The notes beneath the pieces were generated by a model that was given only the letters and a program-made list of their open reading frames with translations, had not been told where the DNA came from and made no database searches. Shown here piece by piece: positions 32-56,770 of a stretch of 64,000 nucleotides of DNA. This DNA comes from a virus. Position numbers and translations under genes: made by a program. The stretch covers positions 1-64,000 of IMG/VR virus record IMGVR_UViG_3300042922_000661. One strand, given 5' to 3'. Positions within the stretch are counted from its first letter, which is position 1; every line of letters starts with the position of its first letter.

Positions 32-481
32 TTAGACACTGTATTCCCCCTGTTCTGACTTCTTCAGGTGGTACTTTTTGGACACGGTGTCCTCCAGCGG
101 GAAGATGCGATAAAGAGGATTCAGGCGGCTGTTGCCGTGTGTTACGCGCACCGTCAGATACCATTCGCCCGGTTCGAGATAGCGCGTATCAATGAGCAGA
201 AATTCTTCACTCACTCCTTTAGGTGAGAGATCCAGCGTGCGCTGCTTACCGGAAATAACCACTGTCGGGTCGTTGCTGTCGCGCAACCAGTACTCAATCT
301 TTGCTCCCGCCAGTTTGCCTGCGCAGGAAATATCCAGACGCACCGGGAACGCAAGCGCGTTATCACGCACTACTGCTGTACCGCATCCCAGTAATGCCAC
401 TTTTTTTCGGGCAAATACGCAGCGATCAACCACCATCGCCGCCGCCATCGCCGTAATAAACAGGTTCTGGTAATCAATCAT
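32..481 (-). CDS. lydB: Antiholin / lysis regulator, LydB-like
   Basis: 149 aa with N-terminal hydrophobic segment; overlaps the holin stop (ATGA); size and position match P1 lydB. Confidence 0.65.
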   Translation of the reverse strand: MIDYQNLFITAMAAAMVVDRCVFARKKVALLGCGTAVVRDNALAFPVRLDISCAGKLAGAKIEYWLRDSNDPTVVISGKQRTLDLSPKGVSEEFLLIDTRYLEPGEWYLTVRVTHGNSRLNPLYRIFPLEDTVSKKYHLKKSEQGEYSV

Positions 482-795
482 TGGCCGGAGCCTCCTTTTG
501 ACCCAAATACGCCGTTTATTGCCGCAATGAGTCGTTCTTTAAATACAGTTGAAAGTTCACGCCAGTTGTTGCTTGCAACCAACACGGCGAGGTAAATCAC
601 GATTTCGTCCAGTCCTTGCTGTCGCGCAAAAAAGTAAGCTGTCAGGCCGGTAATCAGCGCCAGCACCAGCTCAGTGGTAAAATTGAACACGTTCGGTTTA
701 ATGCGGTATTCGCGTACTCCTAATAGGAAAACGCCTGTGCCGCTCAGCAAAGACAGGAGAAGCGAAACCGCGAGCATTTTTTCTACATCGGTCAC
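478..795 (-). CDS. lydA: Holin, LydA-like
   Basis: 105 aa with three hydrophobic helices; follows the tail fibre genes; late-promoter motif upstream. Confidence 0.8.
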   Translation of the reverse strand: MTDVEKMLAVSLLLSLLSGTGVFLLGVREYRIKPNVFNFTTELVLALITGLTAYFFARQQGLDEIVIYLAVLVASNNWRELSTVFKERLIAAINGVFGSKGGSGQ

Positions 796-5584: not shown

Positions 5585-5605
5585 AGGGTACGGAGTTTGT
5601 AATTT
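5585..5605 (-). promoter_or_regulatory. Putative late promoter of the R-S-U operon
   Basis: AAATTACAAAC-TCCG-TACCCT on the minus strand. Confidence 0.7.
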
Positions 5606-19709: not shown

Positions 19710-19730
19710 AATTTATTCGGTTTGTACTTT
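19710..19730 (-). promoter_or_regulatory. Putative late promoter of the capsid/tail operon
   Basis: AAAGTACAAAC-CGAA-TAAATT on the minus strand. Confidence 0.65.
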
Positions 19731-24471: not shown

Positions 24472-24492
24472 AGAATAAGGGGTTTGTAATTT
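24472..24492 (-). promoter_or_regulatory. Putative late promoter of the PAAR/spanin operon
   Basis: AAATTACAAAC-CCCT-TATTCT on the minus strand. Confidence 0.7.
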
Positions 24493-35583: not shown

Positions 35584-35604
35584 ACTGTAAGCGGTTTGTA
35601 CTTT
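35584..35604 (-). promoter_or_regulatory. Putative late promoter of the gp26-gp5 operon
   Basis: AAAGTACAAAC-CGCT-TACAGT on the minus strand. Confidence 0.65.
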
Positions 35605-41330: not shown

Positions 41331-41948
41331 GTATCTATAACAAGCATATCGCAACCACGCTTCCCGTTCATAGCCCTTGAAGGCAGAGCAATATTACTTT
41401 GGAAGCTACTACTCAAAATCTCATCCACCAGACGTTTTCGCGCCTGAGTCATATCGTAGGTTCAACACGCCACACGCCTCAAACACTATCGCTTCTATTG
41501 TGAGTGTTAATACACAAAGCAAAGCAACCTTCTGACGCATTCTACCACGCTGGCTTGCGTGACTCACAATTTTGAGATGCACGCTTACAGCAAGAATATG
41601 TTGGCAATTTCTACATCTTACCTGTGTTTTTTTACAGCTTTCAACTCCATGCAATGAATAGCCTCGCACACCGTGCATGCCCTTCATACCGTGGCTTAGC
41701 CAGAATCATAGATGTAAAGATTCCCGCTTAACAAGCACACCCTGGTAAGGGTTGTATGATTTGTATTTGCGCAACAACTGTAAAGCCAGCAACGCTGGGC
41801 CTTGTAGCCCGAAAAAATTTTTTGTAAATGTCACTGGCCAGAAAAAGGGCTTAAAAAGCCCCTAATGATTAGCCTTGAGGAAGGTAGCGCAAGCTATGAG
41901 AGCATGACTTGCGCAGGCAAAGATAAAATGCGGGATGATGGCGGGTTC

Positions 41949-42246: not shown

Positions 42247-42266
42247 TACTGTATTTTTGTACAGTA
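42247..42266. promoter_or_regulatory. LexA (SOS) box
   Basis: TACTGTATTTTTGTACAGTA (CTGT-N8-ACAG) just upstream of the umuD SD. Confidence 0.92.
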
Positions 42267-42279
42267 ATAGGGAGGGGCT

Positions 42280-42723
42280 ATGATGCGATTAGAAGTGATA
42301 GCAATACCGGACGAAGCCGCGCCACGACAGGCTTTTAAACAATTTCTCGAAACGGTTGCAGCAGGCTTCCCGTCTCCGGCCATTGGATATGAAGACACAC
42401 CCCTGGACCTAAATGATTATTGTGTCCGGGCCAAAACGGCGACTTATTTCGTGCGATGTGAGGGTGAGTCGATGATAGGGGCCGGTATTTTTGACGGTGA
42501 TTTGCTGGTGGTGGATAAATCGAAGGCAGCGGCAGACGGGCAGATCGTAATTGCCTCAGTAGACGGAGAATTTACGGTAAAAAAGCTGCAGCTTAGGCCG
42601 GTGCCGATGCTGCTGGCCATGAACCCGCGCTATAAGCCGATCCCTATCGAGCCTGATTTACTGGAAATTTGGGGGGTGGTTACTTATGTGATCCACCGTA
42701 CTGACAATGTTCCTGCACAGTGA
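42280..42723 (+). CDS. umuD: DNA polymerase V subunit UmuD (cleavable)
   Basis: VAA-GFPSPA cleavage site, GESM catalytic Ser, FTVKKL catalytic Lys. Confidence 0.95.
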   Translation: MMRLEVIAIPDEAAPRQAFKQFLETVAAGFPSPAIGYEDTPLDLNDYCVRAKTATYFVRCEGESMIGAGIFDGDLLVVDKSKAAADGQIVIASVDGEFTVKKLQLRPVPMLLAMNPRYKPIPIEPDLLEIWGVVTYVIHRTDNVPAQ

Positions 42724-43972
42724 CGTTAACGCCTTCTACGTTTCGGCGGAGCTGGCATTTAGGCCGGACCTTTACGGGCGTCCTGTCGTCGTGGCGACGA
42801 ACAACGATGGCTGTATTGCGGCACTGAACCGCGAGGCTAATTACGTGGGCCTGAAGCGGGGCGATCCACTGTTTAAAATTCGAGACACCATCCGGCGCTA
42901 TAATGTGGTGGTATTCAGCAGCAACTACACGCTGTACGACTCATTCAGTAAGCGTTTCCATACGATTGTGGGTGAGTATGTCCCTAACCTGGAAGCGTAC
43001 TCAATTGACGAGGTGTTTGGCTCACTGGACGGCATGGAGAAGCTGGTGGACTTCCAGACATTCGGGGAAGAGATCAGGCGCACCGTCATCCAGCACACCA
43101 CGATGAAGTGTGGCATAGGGATAGCGGAGACCAAGACGCTCTGTAAGGTTGCCACGCACGCGGCAAAGACCTGGCCTAAAACAGGCGGCGTAGTGGTGCT
43201 GACCGATCCGGTGCGGCGCGATAAGCTGCTGTCGCTGCTGGACGTCTCAGAGACGTGGGGTGTCGGCAGAAAGATTGGTGCCAGGCTGCAACTGATGAAC
43301 ATCAAGACGATGCTCGACCTTGCCCGTGCCGACACAACCATGATCCGTAAAAACTTCAACGTGATGCTGGAGCGCACCGTCCGGGAGCTGCGCGGTGAGC
43401 GTTGTTTCGAGCTCGAAGAGAACCCGCCCACCAAACAGCAGATTGTCGTAAGCCGTTCATTCGGCAAACGGCTCACCAGCCTGGATGAAGTGAGCAACGC
43501 TGTTTGCTTCTTTGCCACCAGCGCCGGTGAAAAGCTGCGGCGTGAAAAGCAGTATTGCCGGAACATAACGGTATTCATCCAGACCAGCAAACATGACTCG
43601 CGTCACCCGTATTACTCACGCGGGGCCAGCCACTCGTTTACCACGGCCACACAGGACACGCGTGATCTGATTGATGCCGCCGTGCGCGGCCTCAGAGCTA
43701 TCTGGCGCAATGGCTACGAGTATGCAAAGGCTGGCGTGATGTTGGGGGAGTTCTGCGGCTCGGAGCAGCAGCTGAACCTGTTTGACGAGGCTCCGCCGCG
43801 TCCAGGCAGCGATAAACTGATGGAGTTGATGGATAAGCTGAACAGCTACCAGCGCGGCACGCTATTTATCGCCGGTCAGGGCGTTAATCCGGCCTATCAG
43901 ATGAAGCGGGAAATGTTATCTCCGCGCTATCTGACGCGTTGGGAAGAGCTACCTATTGTCAAAATGAAGTGA
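42707..43972 (+). CDS. umuC: DNA polymerase V subunit UmuC
   Basis: D.N.FY.S.E..FRPDL, NNDGC, YSIDE and MKREMLSPRY motifs. Confidence 0.96.
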   Translation: MFLHSDVNAFYVSAELAFRPDLYGRPVVVATNNDGCIAALNREANYVGLKRGDPLFKIRDTIRRYNVVVFSSNYTLYDSFSKRFHTIVGEYVPNLEAYSIDEVFGSLDGMEKLVDFQTFGEEIRRTVIQHTTMKCGIGIAETKTLCKVATHAAKTWPKTGGVVVLTDPVRRDKLLSLLDVSETWGVGRKIGARLQLMNIKTMLDLARADTTMIRKNFNVMLERTVRELRGERCFELEENPPTKQQIVVSRSFGKRLTSLDEVSNAVCFFATSAGEKLRREKQYCRNITVFIQTSKHDSRHPYYSRGASHSFTTATQDTRDLIDAAVRGLRAIWRNGYEYAKAGVMLGEFCGSEQQLNLFDEAPPRPGSDKLMELMDKLNSYQRGTLFIAGQGVNPAYQMKREMLSPRYLTRWEELPIVKMK

Positions 43973-48822: not shown

Positions 48823-49248
48823 ATGGAAATCAGGATTAAATGCCCGCACTGCGGATCGGGAAGCGTTAAGAGCAGCAGGGCGGTCTATGAGCAGGGAACC
48901 TTAAACACGCACAGCGTCAGCCACACAGGATGGATATCGAATCGCGGATCGGGTGGCAACAGGCGGCAGGGCAAATCAACGCGCCAGTCGGTTGCTGCTT
49001 CACGCAATGCGCCAGCTGGCCGCAAGCTTGAGTGGCTTACATTCGTCGCCTCATTTGTGCTGTCTAGCTGGCTGATACTCGATATACCGGCAACTACAGT
49101 TACTGGATCGGTAATAGCAGGCGTAATCATTGCATTGCTGATAACCGCGCTGGTGGCGCACCTCAACCGGCACAACCGGCGCAGAGCACGGGAGAATTAC
49201 CACAGGCAATGGTATTGCATTAAGTGTGGTAATAATTTCATTCACTGA
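48823..49248 (+). CDS. Zinc-ribbon membrane protein
   Basis: CPHCGS at the N-terminus, CIKCG at the C-terminus, two TM helices between. Confidence 0.7.
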   Translation: MEIRIKCPHCGSGSVKSSRAVYEQGTLNTHSVSHTGWISNRGSGGNRRQGKSTRQSVAASRNAPAGRKLEWLTFVASFVLSSWLILDIPATTVTGSVIAGVIIALLITALVAHLNRHNRRRARENYHRQWYCIKCGNNFIH

Positions 49249-49273
49249 GAATGGTAGTTAGTTTTCTTTAAAA

Positions 49274-50074
49274 ATGAAGGCAATTAAGAAGGGGAGTATT
49301 GTGCTTTATAAATACATAGGAAATAAAGACCCTGTTAAGACAGTTGATTATCTTAAGCGGTTTGTAAAAGATGGTACGATTAAAGCTACTATTCCAATTG
49401 AGTTTAATGATCCCGCTGAATTTAAAGTTAAGTTTGAGTTTGATGCTACTGAACAGGAGAAAGCAAACAGATTTTGTCAACTCTGGCCTAATCATATTGA
49501 AGAATGTGATGATTGGGTAAGAAATAGAACCGCGCACGCTGAGTCCTATGATTCCTTGCTGTTACGTGCAGGGCTTCTGCGTAAAGCCGGGGTTATATGC
49601 CTAACTCTAAATCCATCTGATTTCTTGATGTGGTCACATTATGCTCATTCTCACACTGGTTTTTGTATTGGATTTCATGCGACATTGTTAAATGATTTGG
49701 TTTCAAGAGATTGTGTTGGTTATGACTATGTTATATATACAAAAGAACCGGCAACGGTGAATTTCTATAAAGCGAGTGAAGAAGAAATTGGGCGAGCTAT
49801 ATTTTCGCACAAAAGCCCTGTGTGGGAATATGAAAAGGAGTATCGCTTAATATTCGAAAATTCTGGCGTCAGGAAATTCGACACTTCATCAATAAAAGAG
49901 GTTGTAATTGGTTGTCGAGCAAGTAAAGAATTAAGAGATTATGCCAGAGGTTTAGTTGGAACAGGGATTCGTATCTTTGAAATGAGAGAATCACAACATG
50001 ATTATGAGCAAGTAAAAATAGAATTGCTGGAAGATGGACGCGAGGTGCCCGTTGTCATAACAAGCGCCTTATGA
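49274..50074 (+). CDS. DUF2971 family protein
   Basis: LYKY, FNDP.E, LMWSHYA..H.GFCIGF and KS..W.YE.EYR motifs. Confidence 0.88.
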   Translation: MKAIKKGSIVLYKYIGNKDPVKTVDYLKRFVKDGTIKATIPIEFNDPAEFKVKFEFDATEQEKANRFCQLWPNHIEECDDWVRNRTAHAESYDSLLLRAGLLRKAGVICLTLNPSDFLMWSHYAHSHTGFCIGFHATLLNDLVSRDCVGYDYVIYTKEPATVNFYKASEEEIGRAIFSHKSPVWEYEKEYRLIFENSGVRKFDTSSIKEVVIGCRASKELRDYARGLVGTGIRIFEMRESQHDYEQVKIELLEDGREVPVVITSAL

Positions 50075-50167
50075 TTATTATCAGTTGTAGGAAAGTAAAT
50101 GTTTTTGAGTTGTAGTCATGATAAAGCTGGTGGCCCTAACTTCGCCAGCACATTAGGAAATCCATAA

Positions 50168-50198
50168 AATAAAACCCGCATTGAGCGGGCTTTATTTT
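50168..50198. terminator. Bidirectional terminator
   Basis: AATAAAACCCGC-ATTGA-GCGGGCTTTATT between convergent genes. Confidence 0.75.
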
Positions 50199-50204
50199 GT
50201 GTGC

Positions 50205-51092
50205 TTAACGCTTTATGAAATCATCAAACCGGGCCTGATTAACCACTAGCCAGGCGGGCATGTATTCACGCGTAATTGGCCGGATAACCATCTTCCGCGG
50301 CCGGTTCCAGATATCAATATTCTGCTCAACACAGCGACGGATGTGATCCGGATTGTTGAACTCCGGAAGATTGTTCTCTGTGTGAGATATGGTCTCCATC
50401 TTCTCGCTGATCCGGGTGTCTGTCATTACCCATGAAAAGTGCCAGCCAGCGTCTTCAACTATCTTGGTGCGCATCTTCAGCAGCTTCCAGCGCCACCAGC
50501 TATCCCTGATTGGCGTACCTCTGCGCTTAACGTTACGCAGCAGCTCTGGCTGGCCGTAGAAGAAGCCTTTCAGGTTTTTCATAGTGGTCATCTTTGGAAG
50601 TCGGCAAAGACGCGCAGAACCATCGTCATTAAGCACCTGGACGTTGAACTTATAGTTATAGAAATTCAGGTAAAGCGTAGTGCAGAGGTGACGTGGGCTG
50701 TACTGCTTCAGGGCTTCCGGGCGTGGGATTTCATCAACGTCCGATACCATGATGATATCGTCGTCCTGGGCGAAATTTAAGCCACGCATAATGGAGTTAC
50801 GCGCTATCGTTTCGTTTTCCCACGGGTCTGACTCACCGGCTTTTACTACTGAACTGCCGGAAACGAACTCATTCTGATAAATGGTCGGTATCGAGTCATT
50901 AACGACGTAGATAATCTTGTCACGAAACGCCGCAAACTTTTCGATATCAAAGTTGAGTTTATCGCGGAGTTTGCCGGTAAAGGTGTAGAGGGATTCTACG
51001 ATCACGAACCGATCAACATGCTCATAAAGCGTATTGAGGCGGAGCTCTAAAAGCATGTCTTCATCGTAGTACAGGAAACAGTCGTAAATCAT
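50205..51092 (-). CDS. Glycosyltransferase family 17 (beta-1,4-GlcNAc transferase-like)
   Basis: IYDCF.Y..E...LELRL..L...VD.FVIVES..TFTG, SDVDEIP (DxD) and AGWHFSW motifs. Confidence 0.88.
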   Translation of the reverse strand: MIYDCFLYYDEDMLLELRLNTLYEHVDRFVIVESLYTFTGKLRDKLNFDIEKFAAFRDKIIYVVNDSIPTIYQNEFVSGSSVVKAGESDPWENETIARNSIMRGLNFAQDDDIIMVSDVDEIPRPEALKQYSPRHLCTTLYLNFYNYKFNVQVLNDDGSARLCRLPKMTTMKNLKGFFYGQPELLRNVKRRGTPIRDSWWRWKLLKMRTKIVEDAGWHFSWVMTDTRISEKMETISHTENNLPEFNNPDHIRRCVEQNIDIWNRPRKMVIRPITREYMPAWLVVNQARFDDFIKR

Positions 51093-51197: not shown

Positions 51198-51222
51198 TAA
51201 AAAAGCCTGCCATGACAGGCTT
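51198..51222 (-). terminator. Terminator after the bacteriocin genes
   Basis: AAGCCTG-TCATGG-CAGGC followed by a T run on the minus strand. Confidence 0.7.
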
Positions 51223-51242: not shown

Positions 51243-52055
51243 TTAATGGCCTGACATCGTGACAGGTAAGTCGCCATTAATATTGATTGGGAATGGCATA
51301 CTTCCACCAGTCAGTGATTCCAGGAATCGCCCTGCAGTAGTGAGCTGTTCCGCTGCTTTTGTACGATGGGTACTGGCGTTAAAATCGTAAGTGTCCTGGA
51401 ATCCCCGAACATTAGCATTAAGCGTCCAGGTTCCATCCGCTGCACGATTCAATGTTCCTTCAATTTTCAGCGTAATATTCCCCAGGTACAGGTTAGCCGC
51501 TACACTGTCGTTTCCAGTGTTATATGCAAATTGATGGGTGAAGTTATAAACGCCGGGAGCACTCATACTGGCTAACTGGTCCTGGAAGCCATTAATACCC
51601 GCAGGCTGGAGATTGAGGCCAATCTTGTTGATATCGACATTCATCGGGCGTCCATTTCCCCAGAGGAAATTAGCCATAGCGGAGAATGGACTCCACATGC
51701 TGCCACTCAGCTGATCGCCCATATCGCTAATTTGATAGGATTTTCTCACTTGCGGTGTTGATAGCCAGTCCATAACTCCGGCTGGATTATTATTGGCAAG
51801 ACACTGATCGAAGTAGATGCTCTGGCGGAAGTTGTTCAGCACGACATCTGCATTTTTTTCATTCGAATAGCGTTCAATAATGTCGCAAGTGCCGTCAAAA
51901 CCTCCGCCATTAATGATACTCGTAGCTTGCATTGCCATAGCCTGACCGGGAGGAACGCCCGTTGCGCCACCTGGGTTATAAGAGCCGAATGCTCCACCAG
52001 CTCCCGCATCGCCTGTTCCCACAGGTGCTGTTACGACCATAGTGCCTTCACTCAT
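51243..52055 (-). CDS. cma: Colicin M-like lipid II-degrading bacteriocin, paralog 2
   Basis: 270 aa; TonB-box-like TMVVTA; WGNG, YLGNITL..EGTL and catalytic D.YD.....HR (DTYDFNASTHR). Confidence 0.92.
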   Translation of the reverse strand: MSEGTMVVTAPVGTGDAGAGGAFGSYNPGGATGVPPGQAMAMQATSIINGGGFDGTCDIIERYSNEKNADVVLNNFRQSIYFDQCLANNNPAGVMDWLSTPQVRKSYQISDMGDQLSGSMWSPFSAMANFLWGNGRPMNVDINKIGLNLQPAGINGFQDQLASMSAPGVYNFTHQFAYNTGNDSVAANLYLGNITLKIEGTLNRAADGTWTLNANVRGFQDTYDFNASTHRTKAAEQLTTAGRFLESLTGGSMPFPININGDLPVTMSGH

Positions 52056-52162
52056 AACCTTCTCCTTAATAAAAAATGATGTTGATTTGCTCGCACAACA
52101 GACTGACCCCCTATAGTTAGCCGTCAGAATTAAGGGGTGCAGTCCGTTTAAAAGATTGTTTA

Positions 52163-52966
52163 TTACTGGCCGGAGAAAGAACTATTTAAGTCGCCATTGA
52201 TATTGATTGGGTAATTAACACCCTGGAAGTGTTGACCAAGGAAGTTGCCAATCGTCGTCATATCTTCATTAGTCTTAGTGCGGTGAGTGGATGCATTGAA
52301 GTCATAGTTATCCTGATAACCGCGAACAACGCCGTTGAATGTCCACTGTCCAGAAGCATCACGATTCAACGTACCTTCCATCTGAAGCGTGATGTTGCCG
52401 AGGTAGTAATTAGAAACCAGGCTATCGATGCCTGTGTCATAAGCAAACTTTAGGCTGAAGTTGTAACTGCCTGGTGCGCTCATAGCCATTAACTGATCAT
52501 TAAATCCAGCGATTTTCTGCGGTGCGAGCTGAAGACCAATTTTGTTGATATCAACATTCATTGGACGACCGTTACCCCAAAAGAAATTAGCCAGGGCAGA
52601 AACAACACTGTAAGGGCCACCGCTTAACTGATCGCTCATGTTGTTAAGCTGCCAGTTTTTAAATGAATCTCGATGTTCAAACATATCGGTCATACCACGG
52701 CTATTGTTTGAAGAAACACAATTATCGAGATACACACAGTTTTTAAACCAACCTAAAAGATCATCCAGGTTGTTTTTATTAACTGCATCAACTCCCTCAG
52801 CACTGTTGAATGTCTGGCCTGCGAAGATTTGTTGCATGAGCATTGCTTGTGCTTGACCGACCGGCACCCCTGTTGCTCCGCCTGGGTTATAACTACCATA
52901 TCCAGTAGGTGCTGAATTTCCGAAGCTGACCGGAGGTGCTGTTACAACCATAGTGCCTTCACTCAT
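52163..52966 (-). CDS. cma: Colicin M-like lipid II-degrading bacteriocin, paralog 1
   Basis: 267 aa; same N-terminal MSEGTMVVTAP; YLGNITL..EGTL; DNYDFNASTHR; AAGGAG SD. Confidence 0.92.
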   Translation of the reverse strand: MSEGTMVVTAPPVSFGNSAPTGYGSYNPGGATGVPVGQAQAMLMQQIFAGQTFNSAEGVDAVNKNNLDDLLGWFKNCVYLDNCVSSNNSRGMTDMFEHRDSFKNWQLNNMSDQLSGGPYSVVSALANFFWGNGRPMNVDINKIGLQLAPQKIAGFNDQLMAMSAPGSYNFSLKFAYDTGIDSLVSNYYLGNITLQMEGTLNRDASGQWTFNGVVRGYQDNYDFNASTHRTKTNEDMTTIGNFLGQHFQGVNYPININGDLNSSFSGQ

Positions 52967-53044
52967 ATGTATCTCCTTATGTTTATCATTGTGTTAACGC
53001 GGTATAGAGGATAACAATTCAGACTTAATACCGGCCAGAAACAT

Positions 53045-53060
53045 ATGGTTTTTTATACAG
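53045..53060 (-). promoter_or_regulatory. Degenerate LexA box upstream of the bacteriocin genes
   Basis: CTGTATAAAAAACCAT: ends CAT rather than CAG. Confidence 0.5.
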
Positions 53061-53170
53061 TATTAATTAGCATATTTAACTGCTTGCAAAGCGAGGCGAC
53101 AAGCTTTGATAATTCTAAAAATAATTTAATCATTAAATACAGTTGGTTATAGCAGTGCTTTTGTCTGCAA

Positions 53171-53198
53171 TTGATAACGATTGCTATTTGTATATAAT
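53171..53198 (+). promoter_or_regulatory. Sigma70 promoter of the immunity gene
   Basis: TTGATA-16 bp-TATAAT. Confidence 0.7.
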
Positions 53199-53231
53199 GT
53201 TGCCTAATGAATATCCGTGAGCGAGGGCGTT

Positions 53232-53615
53232 ATGGCAGGAAGAGCAGCAAAAGTGATCGCTTTGGTATTAGCTGGTGGCGTTATATTGGCCCTGGGTGGC
53301 GTCGGTACGCTGGTTTATCTCAGAACTGGCGCTCAGTATTACAGCGTTTCAAATCTGGAAGAGTGTGAAAAATACACAAATGACCAGGCAAAAGAAGCCG
53401 TACTAAGCGCACGACTCAAACAGCCCAATGCTTGGAAAAACTGGAGTGAAGCCTCTGAAGTCGCCAATAAAAATGGCATAAGATTCGTTGATAGCGAAAT
53501 CCAAGGTCCGGATAAGATCTGGCTGGTTCCGTTCTACGAAGCAAAAGCGCCTGATAAAAAGCAGTTCGGTATGCTGGATTGTGGAACATTAACAGTCGAG
53601 TTTGCGTCAGAATAA
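53232..53615 (+). CDS. cmi: Colicin M immunity protein (Cmi/YebF-like)
   Basis: N-terminal TM anchor; periplasmic domain with two Cys, W.VPF and LDC....VEF; divergent from the toxins; ATG 53232 with GAGGG SD. Confidence 0.85.
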   Translation: MAGRAAKVIALVLAGGVILALGGVGTLVYLRTGAQYYSVSNLEECEKYTNDQAKEAVLSARLKQPNAWKNWSEASEVANKNGIRFVDSEIQGPDKIWLVPFYEAKAPDKKQFGMLDCGTLTVEFASE

Positions 53616-53629
53616 TGCGCTTTCGTCCC

Positions 53630-53650
53630 AAATCACAAACCCCTTACCCT
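53630..53650 (+). promoter_or_regulatory. Putative late promoter
   Basis: AAATCACAAAC-CCCT-TACCCT upstream of 53681. Confidence 0.55.
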
Positions 53651-53680: not shown

Positions 53681-54031
53681 ATGACTACCCAAACCGACTC
53701 AAACACCACTACCGCTGATGCGGCCGCACCCACGACAACTGCGAACGCCGGGGAATTGATCGTTTTCGCCGGCGCGACATTTTCCCTGCCGATTATCCCG
53801 GCGCCACTGGTGGTCACATTCAACGGTTCGGACGGTACGCGGGCGCAGCTTACAGTGAATAAGGGCAAGGTGACGTTTGAGGGCGATCCGGACGCAGCAG
53901 CAGAAATGTTTATCGAAGTGATGACACGAAAGCATGCGCAGCAATGGGGCGCACTGCAGGCGCAACTGGAGAAGGCAGAAGCCCAGCTGGCGGCATACTC
54001 ACATCATAACGGCCTGATGATGCTTTCATAG
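53681..54031 (+). CDS. Hypothetical phage protein, possibly truncated by an amber codon
   Basis: 116 aa; the coiled-coil frame continues 21 codons past the TAG to TAA at 54097. Confidence 0.6.
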   Translation: MTTQTDSNTTTADAAAPTTTANAGELIVFAGATFSLPIIPAPLVVTFNGSDGTRAQLTVNKGKVTFEGDPDAAAEMFIEVMTRKHAQQWGALQAQLEKAEAQLAAYSHHNGLMMLS

Positions 54032-55127: not shown

Positions 55128-56390
55128 TTACTTTATACGTGGGATATCTTTCAGACGTGTTGTGTAACGGGGCGACAGCATTTCCCTTTTCATCTGCCAT
55201 GCGCTGTCCCGCTCTCCCTGGCCCGCGAAAAACACTTTTCCTCGCCCAGAACGATTGATGCCGTCCAGTGCTGCCATTAGCGCGTCAGCGTTTGCACGCG
55301 GCTGCTGCTCACTAAACATGTCAAACTGCGCCACTCCAGACTGGTAAAAATCCCCCAGCATTACGCCTGCTTTTGCATACCGGTAGCCGTCGCGCCAGAT
55401 GGTGCTCAGCCCGCGCAAGGCTGATTCGATAATGTCCCGCGTGTCGCTGGTAGGATAGTCGCAGATACACGATGCAGTATTCGAATACTGTGGCTCATCC
55501 GCGTGCCTGGCGGTGGAAACTGACACGCTGATATGACGACAACGCGAGTTTTGTTCTCTTAGCTTTTCTGCTGCACGGGTGGCATACAGCACTATGGCCT
55601 GCTTCATGTCCTCCAGCTCTGTGATCCTCTCCCCAAATGACCGCGAGTTTAAAATGTTCTGCTTTGGCGGCGGGGCGTCTTCCAGGGCAATGCAGGACTC
55701 ACCATTGAGTTCGCGGGTGGTGCGCTCAACGATGACGTCAAAGTTTTTCCGGATCAAGCTGATATTGCTGTCAGCCAGCTGTAGAGCCGTGGTGATACCC
55801 AGTTGTTGCATACGCTTGGTAATACGCGGACCGATACCCCATATATCGCCGACGTCGGTCAGGTGAAGTAGCTTTCGCTGCCGTGTGCGGCTGGAAAGGT
55901 CTACCACACCCCTTGTCTGCGTCCACTTCTTCGCAGCATGGTTAGCCAGCTTGGCCAGTGTCTTCGTTGGGCCAAATCCCACGCCAATTATCAGCCCGGT
56001 TTCACGCCGGACTCGCTCACGCATCTGGTGTCCGAATGTCTCAAGCGGGATCAGATTGCCAATGCCGGTGACGTCCAGAAATGACTCATCAATGGAGTAA
56101 ACCTCCTGTCCAGCAGCCATCTCGCCCAGTATGGCCATCATGCGTGCAGACATATCGCCGTACAGCTCGTAATTGGAACTGAACACATGCACGCCGTTCT
56201 GCCTGAAAAAACGCTCATTCAGAAACAGCGGCGCCGCCATCTTGATCCCCAGGCGCTTTGCCTCTGCCGAACGTGCGATCACGCAGCCGTCGTTGTTCGA
56301 AACAACGACGATAGGCTTACCGCGCAGATCGGGCCTGAATACGGTTTCACAGGAGGCATAAAAGTTATTGGCATCGGCCAGCGCAAACAT
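55128..56390 (-). CDS. umuC: Second DNA polymerase V subunit UmuC
   Basis: MFALAD.NNFYASCE.VFRPDL, SNNDGC, YSIDE and WQMKREMLSPRYTT motifs. Confidence 0.96.
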   Translation of the reverse strand: MFALADANNFYASCETVFRPDLRGKPIVVVSNNDGCVIARSAEAKRLGIKMAAPLFLNERFFRQNGVHVFSSNYELYGDMSARMMAILGEMAAGQEVYSIDESFLDVTGIGNLIPLETFGHQMRERVRRETGLIIGVGFGPTKTLAKLANHAAKKWTQTRGVVDLSSRTRQRKLLHLTDVGDIWGIGPRITKRMQQLGITTALQLADSNISLIRKNFDVIVERTTRELNGESCIALEDAPPPKQNILNSRSFGERITELEDMKQAIVLYATRAAEKLREQNSRCRHISVSVSTARHADEPQYSNTASCICDYPTSDTRDIIESALRGLSTIWRDGYRYAKAGVMLGDFYQSGVAQFDMFSEQQPRANADALMAALDGINRSGRGKVFFAGQGERDSAWQMKREMLSPRYTTRLKDIPRIK

Positions 56391-56392
56391 GC

Positions 56393-56770
56393 TTATTCTC
56401 CAGCGGGTCCGTTAAAGCCGATCCCGGCCACATCCGTTAAGGCATAAGCCACCACACCCCACACGGGTAGTGCCTGGCTCACATCAAGCAGCGTTACTGT
56501 CTCGTCCGCGTCTAGCGCCTGCAGGGCGGGAACTGGATTGAGCAGTAGCCGCCTTAACGTAAGCTCGCCGTCGAACTCAGCAACGATAAGCTGGCCGTGT
56601 GCCGGTGTCAGGGCGCGATCGATGGACAGCACCGAGCCTTTGACGATACCGGCACTGGGGCAGTCGGACTCGCTGCGCATCAGATATGTAGAGTAGGGGG
56701 AAAGGTATACCAGATCGCCCAGGTTCAGGCGCGTTTCAGTGTAGTTCTGGGCGGGGCTCTGAAAGGCCAT
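56393..56770 (-). CDS. humD: Pre-cleaved UmuD'-like protein (HumD-like)
   Basis: 125 aa starting MAFQSPA, equivalent to the post-cleavage GFPSPA; lacks the G.SM Ser and VK Lys motifs. Confidence 0.8.
   Translation of the reverse strand: MAFQSPAQNYTETRLNLGDLVYLSPYSTYLMRSESDCPSAGIVKGSVLSIDRALTPAHGQLIVAEFDGELTLRRLLLNPVPALQALDADETVTLLDVSQALPVWGVVAYALTDVAGIGFNGPAGE

Follow-up and report, generated by a model that had tools for sequence, protein, structure and literature searches.

What does a phage-plasmid do with two colicin M-type (ColM) bacteriocin genes and only one candidate immunity gene to go with them? The question is raised by a locus at positions 51243–53615 of a 64,000-nucleotide stretch of viral DNA (the window), which corresponds to positions 1 to 64,000 of IMG/VR record IMGVR_UViG_3300042922_000661. 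An earlier note on this DNA had described the locus as a tandem pair of toxin genes with one immunity gene on a P1-like phage-plasmid. The explanation that we consider quite probable, taken as a whole, is that a ColM cassette, inserted where a D6/P1-like phage-plasmid of Pantoea carries variable cargo, encodes two toxins that would recognize two receptors and share a single immunity protein, PeiB.

The toxin genes lie in tandem on the minus strand. M1, the promoter-proximal gene (52163–52966), encodes a protein of 267 amino acids (aa), and M2 (51243–52055) encodes one of 270 aa. The open reading frames (ORFs) and their matches to the Colicin_M family (PF14859; 155.4 bits for M1 and 145.6 bits for M2, with a Pfam cut-off of 27 bits) bear out the two paralogs described in the earlier note. 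M2 also matched the sequences of colicin M, syringacin M, PaeM and the pectocins in the PDB, with the ColM entries at E = 2e-31. In its AlphaFold2 model (predicted local distance difference test score, pLDDT, of 84), the N-terminus is disordered, the central domain is helical and the C-terminal domain is α/β. The model could be superimposed on colicin M (3da4_A) along its full length, with a template modelling (TM) score of 0.71 over 277 columns; syringacin M and PaeM were matched at E = 1e-16.

M1 and M2 are 55% identical over their whole length, with 66% identity in the N-terminal 44 residues, 27% at residues 45–108 and 65% in the catalytic domain. The motifs MSEGTMVVTAP, GSYNPGGATGVP.GQA.AM and D.YD.....HR are common to both proteins. 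When the two were aligned with E. coli colicin M (Cma, from the pColBM-type plasmid NZ_CP123591.1), the columns for D226, Y228, D229, H235 and R236 (E. coli Cma numbering) were invariant. At the TonB-box-like N-terminus, MSEGTMVVTAP aligned to ME--TLTVHAP of Cma, with residues M1, T3, V6, A8 and P9 invariant. The shared motifs, the intact catalytic residues and the strongly differing centre that the earlier note had pointed out were thus all recovered in this alignment. By these features, M1 and M2 are complete and apparently active toxins of the ColM type that diverge from each other in the central, receptor-binding domain. Because the central domains are just 27% identical, we expect them to bind different outer-membrane receptors.

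Both toxins are under strong purifying selection. Compared with the Pantoea ananatis orthologues described below, the ratio of nonsynonymous to synonymous substitution rates (dN/dS) was 0.05 for M1 and 0.11 for M2, and 0.03 for the catalytic domain of each. Between M1 and M2 themselves, synonymous sites are saturated, which argues that they are old alleles that have been united, not recent duplicates. The "duplicated pair" of the earlier note does not hold in the sense of a recent duplication, given this saturation and the recombinant mosaic that the locus forms.

The mosaic was apparent in a 100-bp nucleotide identity scan. The peiB gene and the catalytic part of M1 are 95–100% similar to the P. 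eucalypti plasmid pEuc3, and the N-terminal and central part of M1 is 87–92% P. ananatis-like, against 51–77%. M2 is present only in the P. ananatis-like cassette, while the flank that carries a family-17 glycosyltransferase (GT17) gene is similar to that of L007, a related IMG/VR element. At the protein level, the M1 catalytic domain is 99% identical to that of pEuc3 and another IMG/VR element, L005, but the central domain is just 44% identical. Three central-domain types are in circulation, all on near-identical catalytic scaffolds. Judged by these identities, the locus is a recombinant mosaic of ColM cassettes circulating in Pantoea, a pattern that is typical of polymorphic toxins.

Other contigs cover parts of the same arrangement. 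One isolate contig carries GT17, M2 and the catalytic part of M1, but there most of the M1 central domain (52657–52877) is replaced by 227 letters of different sequence. Contigs from a food-metagenome run were 100% identical to the window and covered the tandem locus except for about 270 bp in two small gaps. In a fermentation (food) metagenome, one contig joins 51190 to 53632, the exact outer borders of the M2-M1-peiB cassette; its flanks are short and of 88% likeness, and the joint hints at relatives that lack the whole cassette, which remains unproven. Contigs from a plant-metagenome run labelled as RNA lie only over M1 (three differences) and an M2-like gene; the RNA status is a guess, and these contigs do not constitute evidence of expression.

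The search for homologous loci that the earlier note had proposed turned up the same cassette on a P. ananatis plasmid and single-toxin versions in the element's own lineage. The plasmid, NZ_CP020945.2 of P. ananatis PNA 97-1R, carries the same three genes in the same order and orientation as the window, annotated as two lipid II-degrading bacteriocins and a hypothetical protein. The two cassettes are colinear (nucleotide identity 83%, or 81% over 2.7 kb), and the products are 93% (M1), 86% (M2) and 79% (PeiB) identical. They differ in their surroundings, since the P. ananatis cassette adjoins repA on an ordinary plasmid of 161 kb, whereas that of the window sits on a P1/D6-like phage-plasmid, and in that peiB and the M1 catalytic domain of the window are of the phage-plasmid lineage's own type. 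ColM-type genes in tandem with an upstream PeiB gene have been described in P. ananatis Sd-1 (Ghequire et al. 2018, mBio, PMC5821083). The likeness to Sd-1 is by the description in that review, while the identity figures given here refer to the PNA 97-1R plasmid. With this precedent for tandem ColM genes and an upstream candidate immunity gene, the novelty claimed in the earlier note was overstated.

The single-toxin lineage comprises pEuc3 (NZ_CP045723.1, a circular plasmid of 94,967 bp), the IMG/VR elements L005, L006 and L007, and a contig of P. conspicua LMG 24534. These elements share the backbone of the window (UmuC 94–98% and orf116 72–80% identical, with GT17 in L007) and have one ColM gene and PeiB at the same slot. 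In at least four of the relatives, namely pEuc3 and the three IMG/VR elements (one of which matches the P. conspicua contig), an M1-type gene is the only toxin gene that accompanies PeiB. Relative to the window, their PeiB is 82–94% and their M1-type catalytic domain 94–99% identical, but the central domain is of a third type (C), 38–44% identical to that of M1; the window has type A in M1 and, in addition, M2 with type B. In L006 (6001–6846) and the matching P. conspicua contig, the ColM protein is 281 aa long and has an altered C-terminus that departs from the conserved ...NGDL..FSGQ end, and the 3' end of this gene may be frameshifted or otherwise changed.

Full-length M2-type proteins were found in P. 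agglomerans (on a 93-kb contig), P. stewartii and P. ananatis. Among species-representative genomes, a ColM domain is present in 4 of 75 from Pantoea and 6 of 401 from the family, none of which has ColM genes in tandem; the tandem arrangement is therefore a strain-level trait in these taxa. A pattern scan of genome contigs found two loci only. When a phage collection was searched with the DNA of the locus, there was no match, and the sole match to the ColM protein in that collection was a Pseudomonas tailocin-region record, with none in P1-like phages.

The third gene of the cassette, peiB, is on the plus strand at 53232–53615 and encodes a candidate ColM immunity protein of 127 aa, which starts with a transmembrane helix and continues into a periplasmic domain containing two invariant cysteines. 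The ORF spans 53217–53615, and GTG at 53217 is an alternative start; ATG at 53232 is likelier, because all 13 full-length homologues are 127 aa long and the P. ananatis annotation agrees. The single divergent Cmi-like gene of the earlier note was confirmed with this refinement of its start, and no second PeiB-like gene was found in the whole 95-kb element. In the structural model of PeiB, a helix at residues 3–31 serves as the membrane anchor and is followed by a folded C-terminal domain. C45 and C117 are invariant across the family and align with C31 and C107 of Cmi, and a C-terminal VE(F/Y) motif lines up as well.

The family is small, with 12 representative clusters among 1.84 billion proteins. 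With the single PeiB sequence, the best PDB match was Cmi at E = 0.3–0.7, and when a family profile that included distant members was used, Cmi came top at E = 0.003 and YebF third at E = 0.025, both borderline scores. Foldseek placed Cmi (2xgl_B) first with a probability of 0.99 and E = 0.037. VIA-align also placed Cmi first, with Z = 6.8 and a root-mean-square deviation (RMSD) of 2.8 over 67 aa; YebF scored Z = 5.4, while unrelated small β-sheet proteins reach Z = 6. A Pfam search with the PeiB of the window matched neither YebF (PF13995) nor any other family. PF13995 gave weak matches in three of 15 family members, the best at E = 0.005, none evidently above the curated cut-off. Taken together, sequence and model suggest that PeiB is probably a remote homologue of Cmi and YebF.

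An upstream gene of this kind was named as a candidate immunity gene, PeiB (Pantoea-Erwinia ColM immunity type B), by Ghequire et al. 2018 (PMC5821083). We assigned the gene of the window to this type because it adjoins a Pantoea ColM-alpha gene upstream and has a Cmi-like topology without the YebF Pfam signature. PeiB-like genes, 26–57% identical, are neighbours of ColM genes in Erwinia as well as in several genomes of the Pantoea group. Two gene orders occur, the PeiB-like gene being either upstream and divergent or downstream and co-oriented with the toxin gene. The fact that the family adjoins ColM genes in such diverged lineages supports an immunity function.

Is one PeiB enough for two toxins? 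The periplasmic domain differs at four residues from PeiB of the single-toxin elements. In the last 21 residues, which form the region proposed to be critical in Cmi (PMC5821083), only one position varies among the six PeiBs compared, the P. ananatis copy being the odd one. As there is no tandem-specific PeiB allele, either PeiB tolerates the 35% divergence between the two catalytic domains or M2 needs no PeiB. We favour tolerance of both catalytic domains, given that in P. ananatis, too, one immunity gene goes with the two toxin genes, and PeiB probably covers both toxins.

Expression signals are arranged on both strands. The peiB gene has a promoter at 53171–53198 (plus strand), TTGATA-16-TATAAT, that agrees with the consensus at 11 of 12 positions and, as the earlier note had seen, is consensus-like; it is unchanged in five loci even though the surrounding spacer has diverged. 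Its assignment rests on this conservation and not on the scan, because promoter-like matches in the region occur at the frequency expected from shuffled sequence. On the minus strand, a block 5' of M1 (53045–53079) is nearly invariant in the same number of loci and contains a candidate promoter, TTAAAT (53079–53074)-16-TATAAA (53057–53052), overlapped by TACTGTATAAAAAACCAT, which resembles a LexA site in its left half only. Such conservation is consistent with a promoter role for the block. The element AATTGTTATCC in the 5' untranslated region of M1 (53011–53021, minus strand) is invariant in four of five loci; we take it to be identical to one half of the lac operator, either as a regulator site or by coincidence.

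The 107-nt spacer between M1 and M2 (52056–52162, minus strand) contains a GC-rich hairpin that has no run of U next to it and a fold z-score of only −1.9, as well as the ribosome-binding site of M2, AAGGAG. No promoter-like site was found in it, which makes co-transcription of M1 and M2 likely. Past the M2 stop, at a distance of 21 nt, there is an intrinsic terminator with an 8-bp stem followed by a T run (51203–51222, minus strand), at which the toxin operon would end. An M1-M2 operon is the simplest reading of this arrangement. Several other signals were sought and rejected. No CTGT-N8-ACAG box within one mismatch lies near the toxin genes as a sign of SOS control, the perfect boxes of the window being just those at 41622 and 42249, and the TACTGTAT... 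motif 5' of M1 is a conserved half-site only and not a LexA box. The best intergenic matches to a Fur box reach 12–13 of 19 positions, and the window holds 104 such matches, which is the chance level.

We infer the following sequence of events. Recombination between ColM cassettes circulating in Pantoea produced the present arrangement. M1 and M2, predicted to be independently functional lipid II-degrading toxins, would be co-transcribed from the conserved region 5' of M1, with transcription ending at the terminator past M2. The pair would widen the killing range, or a single-step loss of one receptor would no longer be enough for resistance. From its own near-consensus promoter, peiB would produce a membrane-anchored periplasmic protein that shields the lysogen from both toxins. 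The toxins would be freed by cell lysis, possibly through the element's own lysis proteins. In this scheme, the two receptors, the cross-immunity, the operon structure and the release by lysis are predicted.

Several findings weigh against this explanation. The homology between PeiB and Cmi has borderline scores, Pfam finds no YebF match, and the VIA-align Z of 6.8 is just about 1 above that of unrelated folds; the review, too, gives PeiB candidate status only (PMC5821083). With catalytic domains just 65% identical, a single immunity protein may fail to cover both toxins. A σ70 consensus scan of the toxin strand called no promoter, so that the operon and its regulation rest on conservation. 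Neither a late-promoter motif nor a LexA box was found before the toxin genes, and the sequence gives no indication of coupling to phage induction.

The counter-proposal that these findings bring closest is that PeiB guards against the M1-type catalytic domain only, and that M2 either needs no immunity, if the producer lacks its receptor, or is neutralized by a chromosomal immunity gene. ColM acts only from the periplasmic side, so a producer without the M2 receptor would be safe. This would fit with a periplasmic domain that is almost the same as in elements with the M1-type toxin only, showing no adaptation on the arrival of M2, with the divergence of the catalytic domains, and with the situation in pectobacteria, where cmi homologues and pectocin M genes are not linked (PMC5821083). 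On the other hand, the P. ananatis plasmid keeps all three genes with a single PeiB, in which the final 21 residues show one difference from the remaining five PeiBs compared, and the search of the element for a second PeiB-like gene was negative. We regard this proposal as unlikely, though it deserves to be taken seriously.

Alternatively, one of the toxin genes might be a silent or spare module that serves as recombination stock for domain swaps. Domain-level recombination is indeed evident at the locus, and M2 sits behind a hairpin without a promoter of its own. Against this, the M2 ORF is complete and follows a strong ribosome-binding site, and its product has kept a TonB-box-like N-terminus and all catalytic residues. 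The dN/dS of M2 is low (0.11, and 0.03 in the catalytic domain), and M2-type proteins are of full length in P. agglomerans, P. stewartii and P. ananatis; we consider a spare module very improbable. The same genes, being adjacent, probably co-transcribed and sharing N-terminal motifs, could also be taken for the halves of a two-component (heteromeric) toxin, an alternative raised in the earlier note. Each of them, though, possesses the three ColM domains in full, and the superposition of the M2 model on colicin M, a monomer, extends from end to end. In pEuc3 and three IMG/VR elements, moreover, PeiB is accompanied by an M1-type gene without M2. No member of the ColM family is known to us to depend on a partner, and this last alternative can practically be set aside. 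Two separate toxins that share PeiB thus remain the preferred explanation.

If the toxins are released by lysis, the means may lie elsewhere on the element. As the earlier note had stated, there is no lysis gene beside the cassette: its neighbours are the GT17 gene and a 116-aa ORF, and the spacers of the cassette contain only ORFs of 25–53 aa of no note, with neither a second immunity gene nor a lysis gene among them. The element does encode LydB (32–481, minus strand; PF16084, E = 7e-23). Upstream of it, in the position of P1 lydA, is a 105-aa ORF (478–795, minus strand) that matched no Pfam family and is a probable LydA by position and size only. A search of the element for a PF00959 lysozyme was negative. 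That LydB and the probable LydA, about 50 kb from the toxin genes, provide a release route is a plausible possibility. In general, colM loci lack lysis genes (PMC5821083), and some other colicins have been shown to be released by piggy-backing on the lysis of a prophage (Nedialkova et al. 2016, as cited in PMC5821083).

A putative late-promoter motif, AAA(T/G)(T/C)ACA(A/G)AC...TA...(C/T)T, occurs in six copies in the window, five on the minus strand (831–851, 5585–5605, 19710–19730, 24472–24492 and 35584–35604) and one on the plus strand (53630–53650). The last of these lies just past peiB, heads the 116-aa ORF at 53681–54031 and is oriented away from the toxins.

The complete record is 95,173 bp long, has terminal repeats and is rated complete. 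The tail sheath protein has as its sole phage relatives D6 (60% identity) and P1-group phages (43%). Besides the sheath, P1-type virion genes for Sit (phrog_7182), a tail fibre and a portal were identified, as were PacA/B-like terminase, PmgS-like, Dar-like, Ref-like nuclease and LydB genes. A partition protein (phrog_691) and a tyrosine recombinase of 343 aa, the size of Cre, are also present and may serve maintenance as a plasmid. By its gene content (sheath, Sit, packaging, lysis and partition), the element is a P1-like phage-plasmid, as had been claimed, although D6-like is more precise.

The cassette is located between umuDC/orf116 and the GT17 gene. A low-GC island (49200–51092; GC content 0.37–0.39, compared to about 0.52) encodes a DUF2971 protein (49274–50074), and next to it, directly downstream of the toxin operon, lies GT17 (50205–51092). 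Cargo varies here as well, which makes this the second such region: L007 likewise has GT17, but pEuc3 has a serine acetyltransferase gene at the same place. One product of the ORF pair at 55128–56770, 420 aa long, shares 98% identity with the protein annotated as UmuC in pEuc3. Perfect LexA boxes were found at 41622–41637 and 42249–42264. The second is just 5' of a 147-aa ORF that is followed by a 421-aa ORF (phrog_1268, DNA polymerase); the layout of these ORFs (42280–43972) could be that of a umuDC-like pair, and the element may carry two translesion-polymerase modules.

The best-known comparison is E. coli colicin M with its immunity protein Cmi on pColBM (PDB 2XMX and 3DA4 for the toxin, 2XGL and 4AEQ for Cmi). 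The toxins share the three-domain organization, TonB-box-like N-terminus, catalytic motif and fold. Cmi and PeiB are both small, membrane-anchored by a transmembrane segment, provided with a two-cysteine periplasmic domain and encoded on the strand opposite to the toxin, and neither locus has a lysis gene. The window toxins are about 33% identical to colicin M, and the central domain has no meaningful alignment, so that binding to FhuA cannot be assumed. While pColBM has one toxin gene, with the immunity gene downstream and convergent, the window has two, with the immunity gene upstream and divergent, no colicin B partner, and a PeiB without the Pfam YebF signature.

A closer parallel in genomic location is provided by the telocins of Klebsiella telomere (N15-like) phage-plasmids (Sci Adv 2025, PMC12042878), which, like the cassette described here, are bacteriocin-immunity cassettes at a variable phage-plasmid locus. 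Telocin alleles differ among otherwise similar phages, some of which lack the cassette, and ImmA, the sole immunity protein detailed, is predicted to have four hydrophobic helices (PMC12042878). Unlike the element in question, the telocin phages are linear N15-like siphoviruses with one toxin per locus. Neither "Colicin M" nor "lipid II" appears in the text of that paper. Our literature search found no paper in which ColM is connected with a P1-like element or in which the slot on the Pantoea phage-plasmids is described, and carriage of ColM genes on a P1-like phage-plasmid is apparently undescribed, in keeping with the earlier note.

What is new here, as modest additions, is the phage-plasmid location, the domain-level mosaic, the selection on both toxins and the probable Cmi ancestry of PeiB. 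A more far-reaching scenario, which we offer only tentatively, is that the P1/D6-like lineage of Pantoea keeps a ColM slot in which receptor domains and extra toxins are swapped with ordinary plasmids, while an unchanged PeiB neutralizes both toxins; phage lysis would then discharge the toxins, kill non-lysogens and free the niche for lysogens. Practical interest is modest, ColM-type toxins being candidates for narrow-spectrum control of Pantoea and Erwinia that cause plant disease.

If the proposed explanation is true, the P1/D6 group would join the Klebsiella telomere phages, so far the only phage-plasmids shown to carry bacteriocins, and plant-associated Pantoea would be added on the host side. 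The elements described here form a natural series, in which one backbone carries one or two ColM toxins with three types of receptor domain and a near-constant immunity gene. Such a series could be used for mapping the ColM receptors of Pantoea, for studying whether Cmi-like immunity depends on the allele, and for examining whether colicins that lack a lysis gene leave the cell through phage lysis. No stable complex of ColM with Cmi has been obtained, even for E. coli (PMC5821083). If PeiB does cross-protect, the natural toxin pair would offer a handle on the mechanism of Cmi-type immunity, which is still unsolved.

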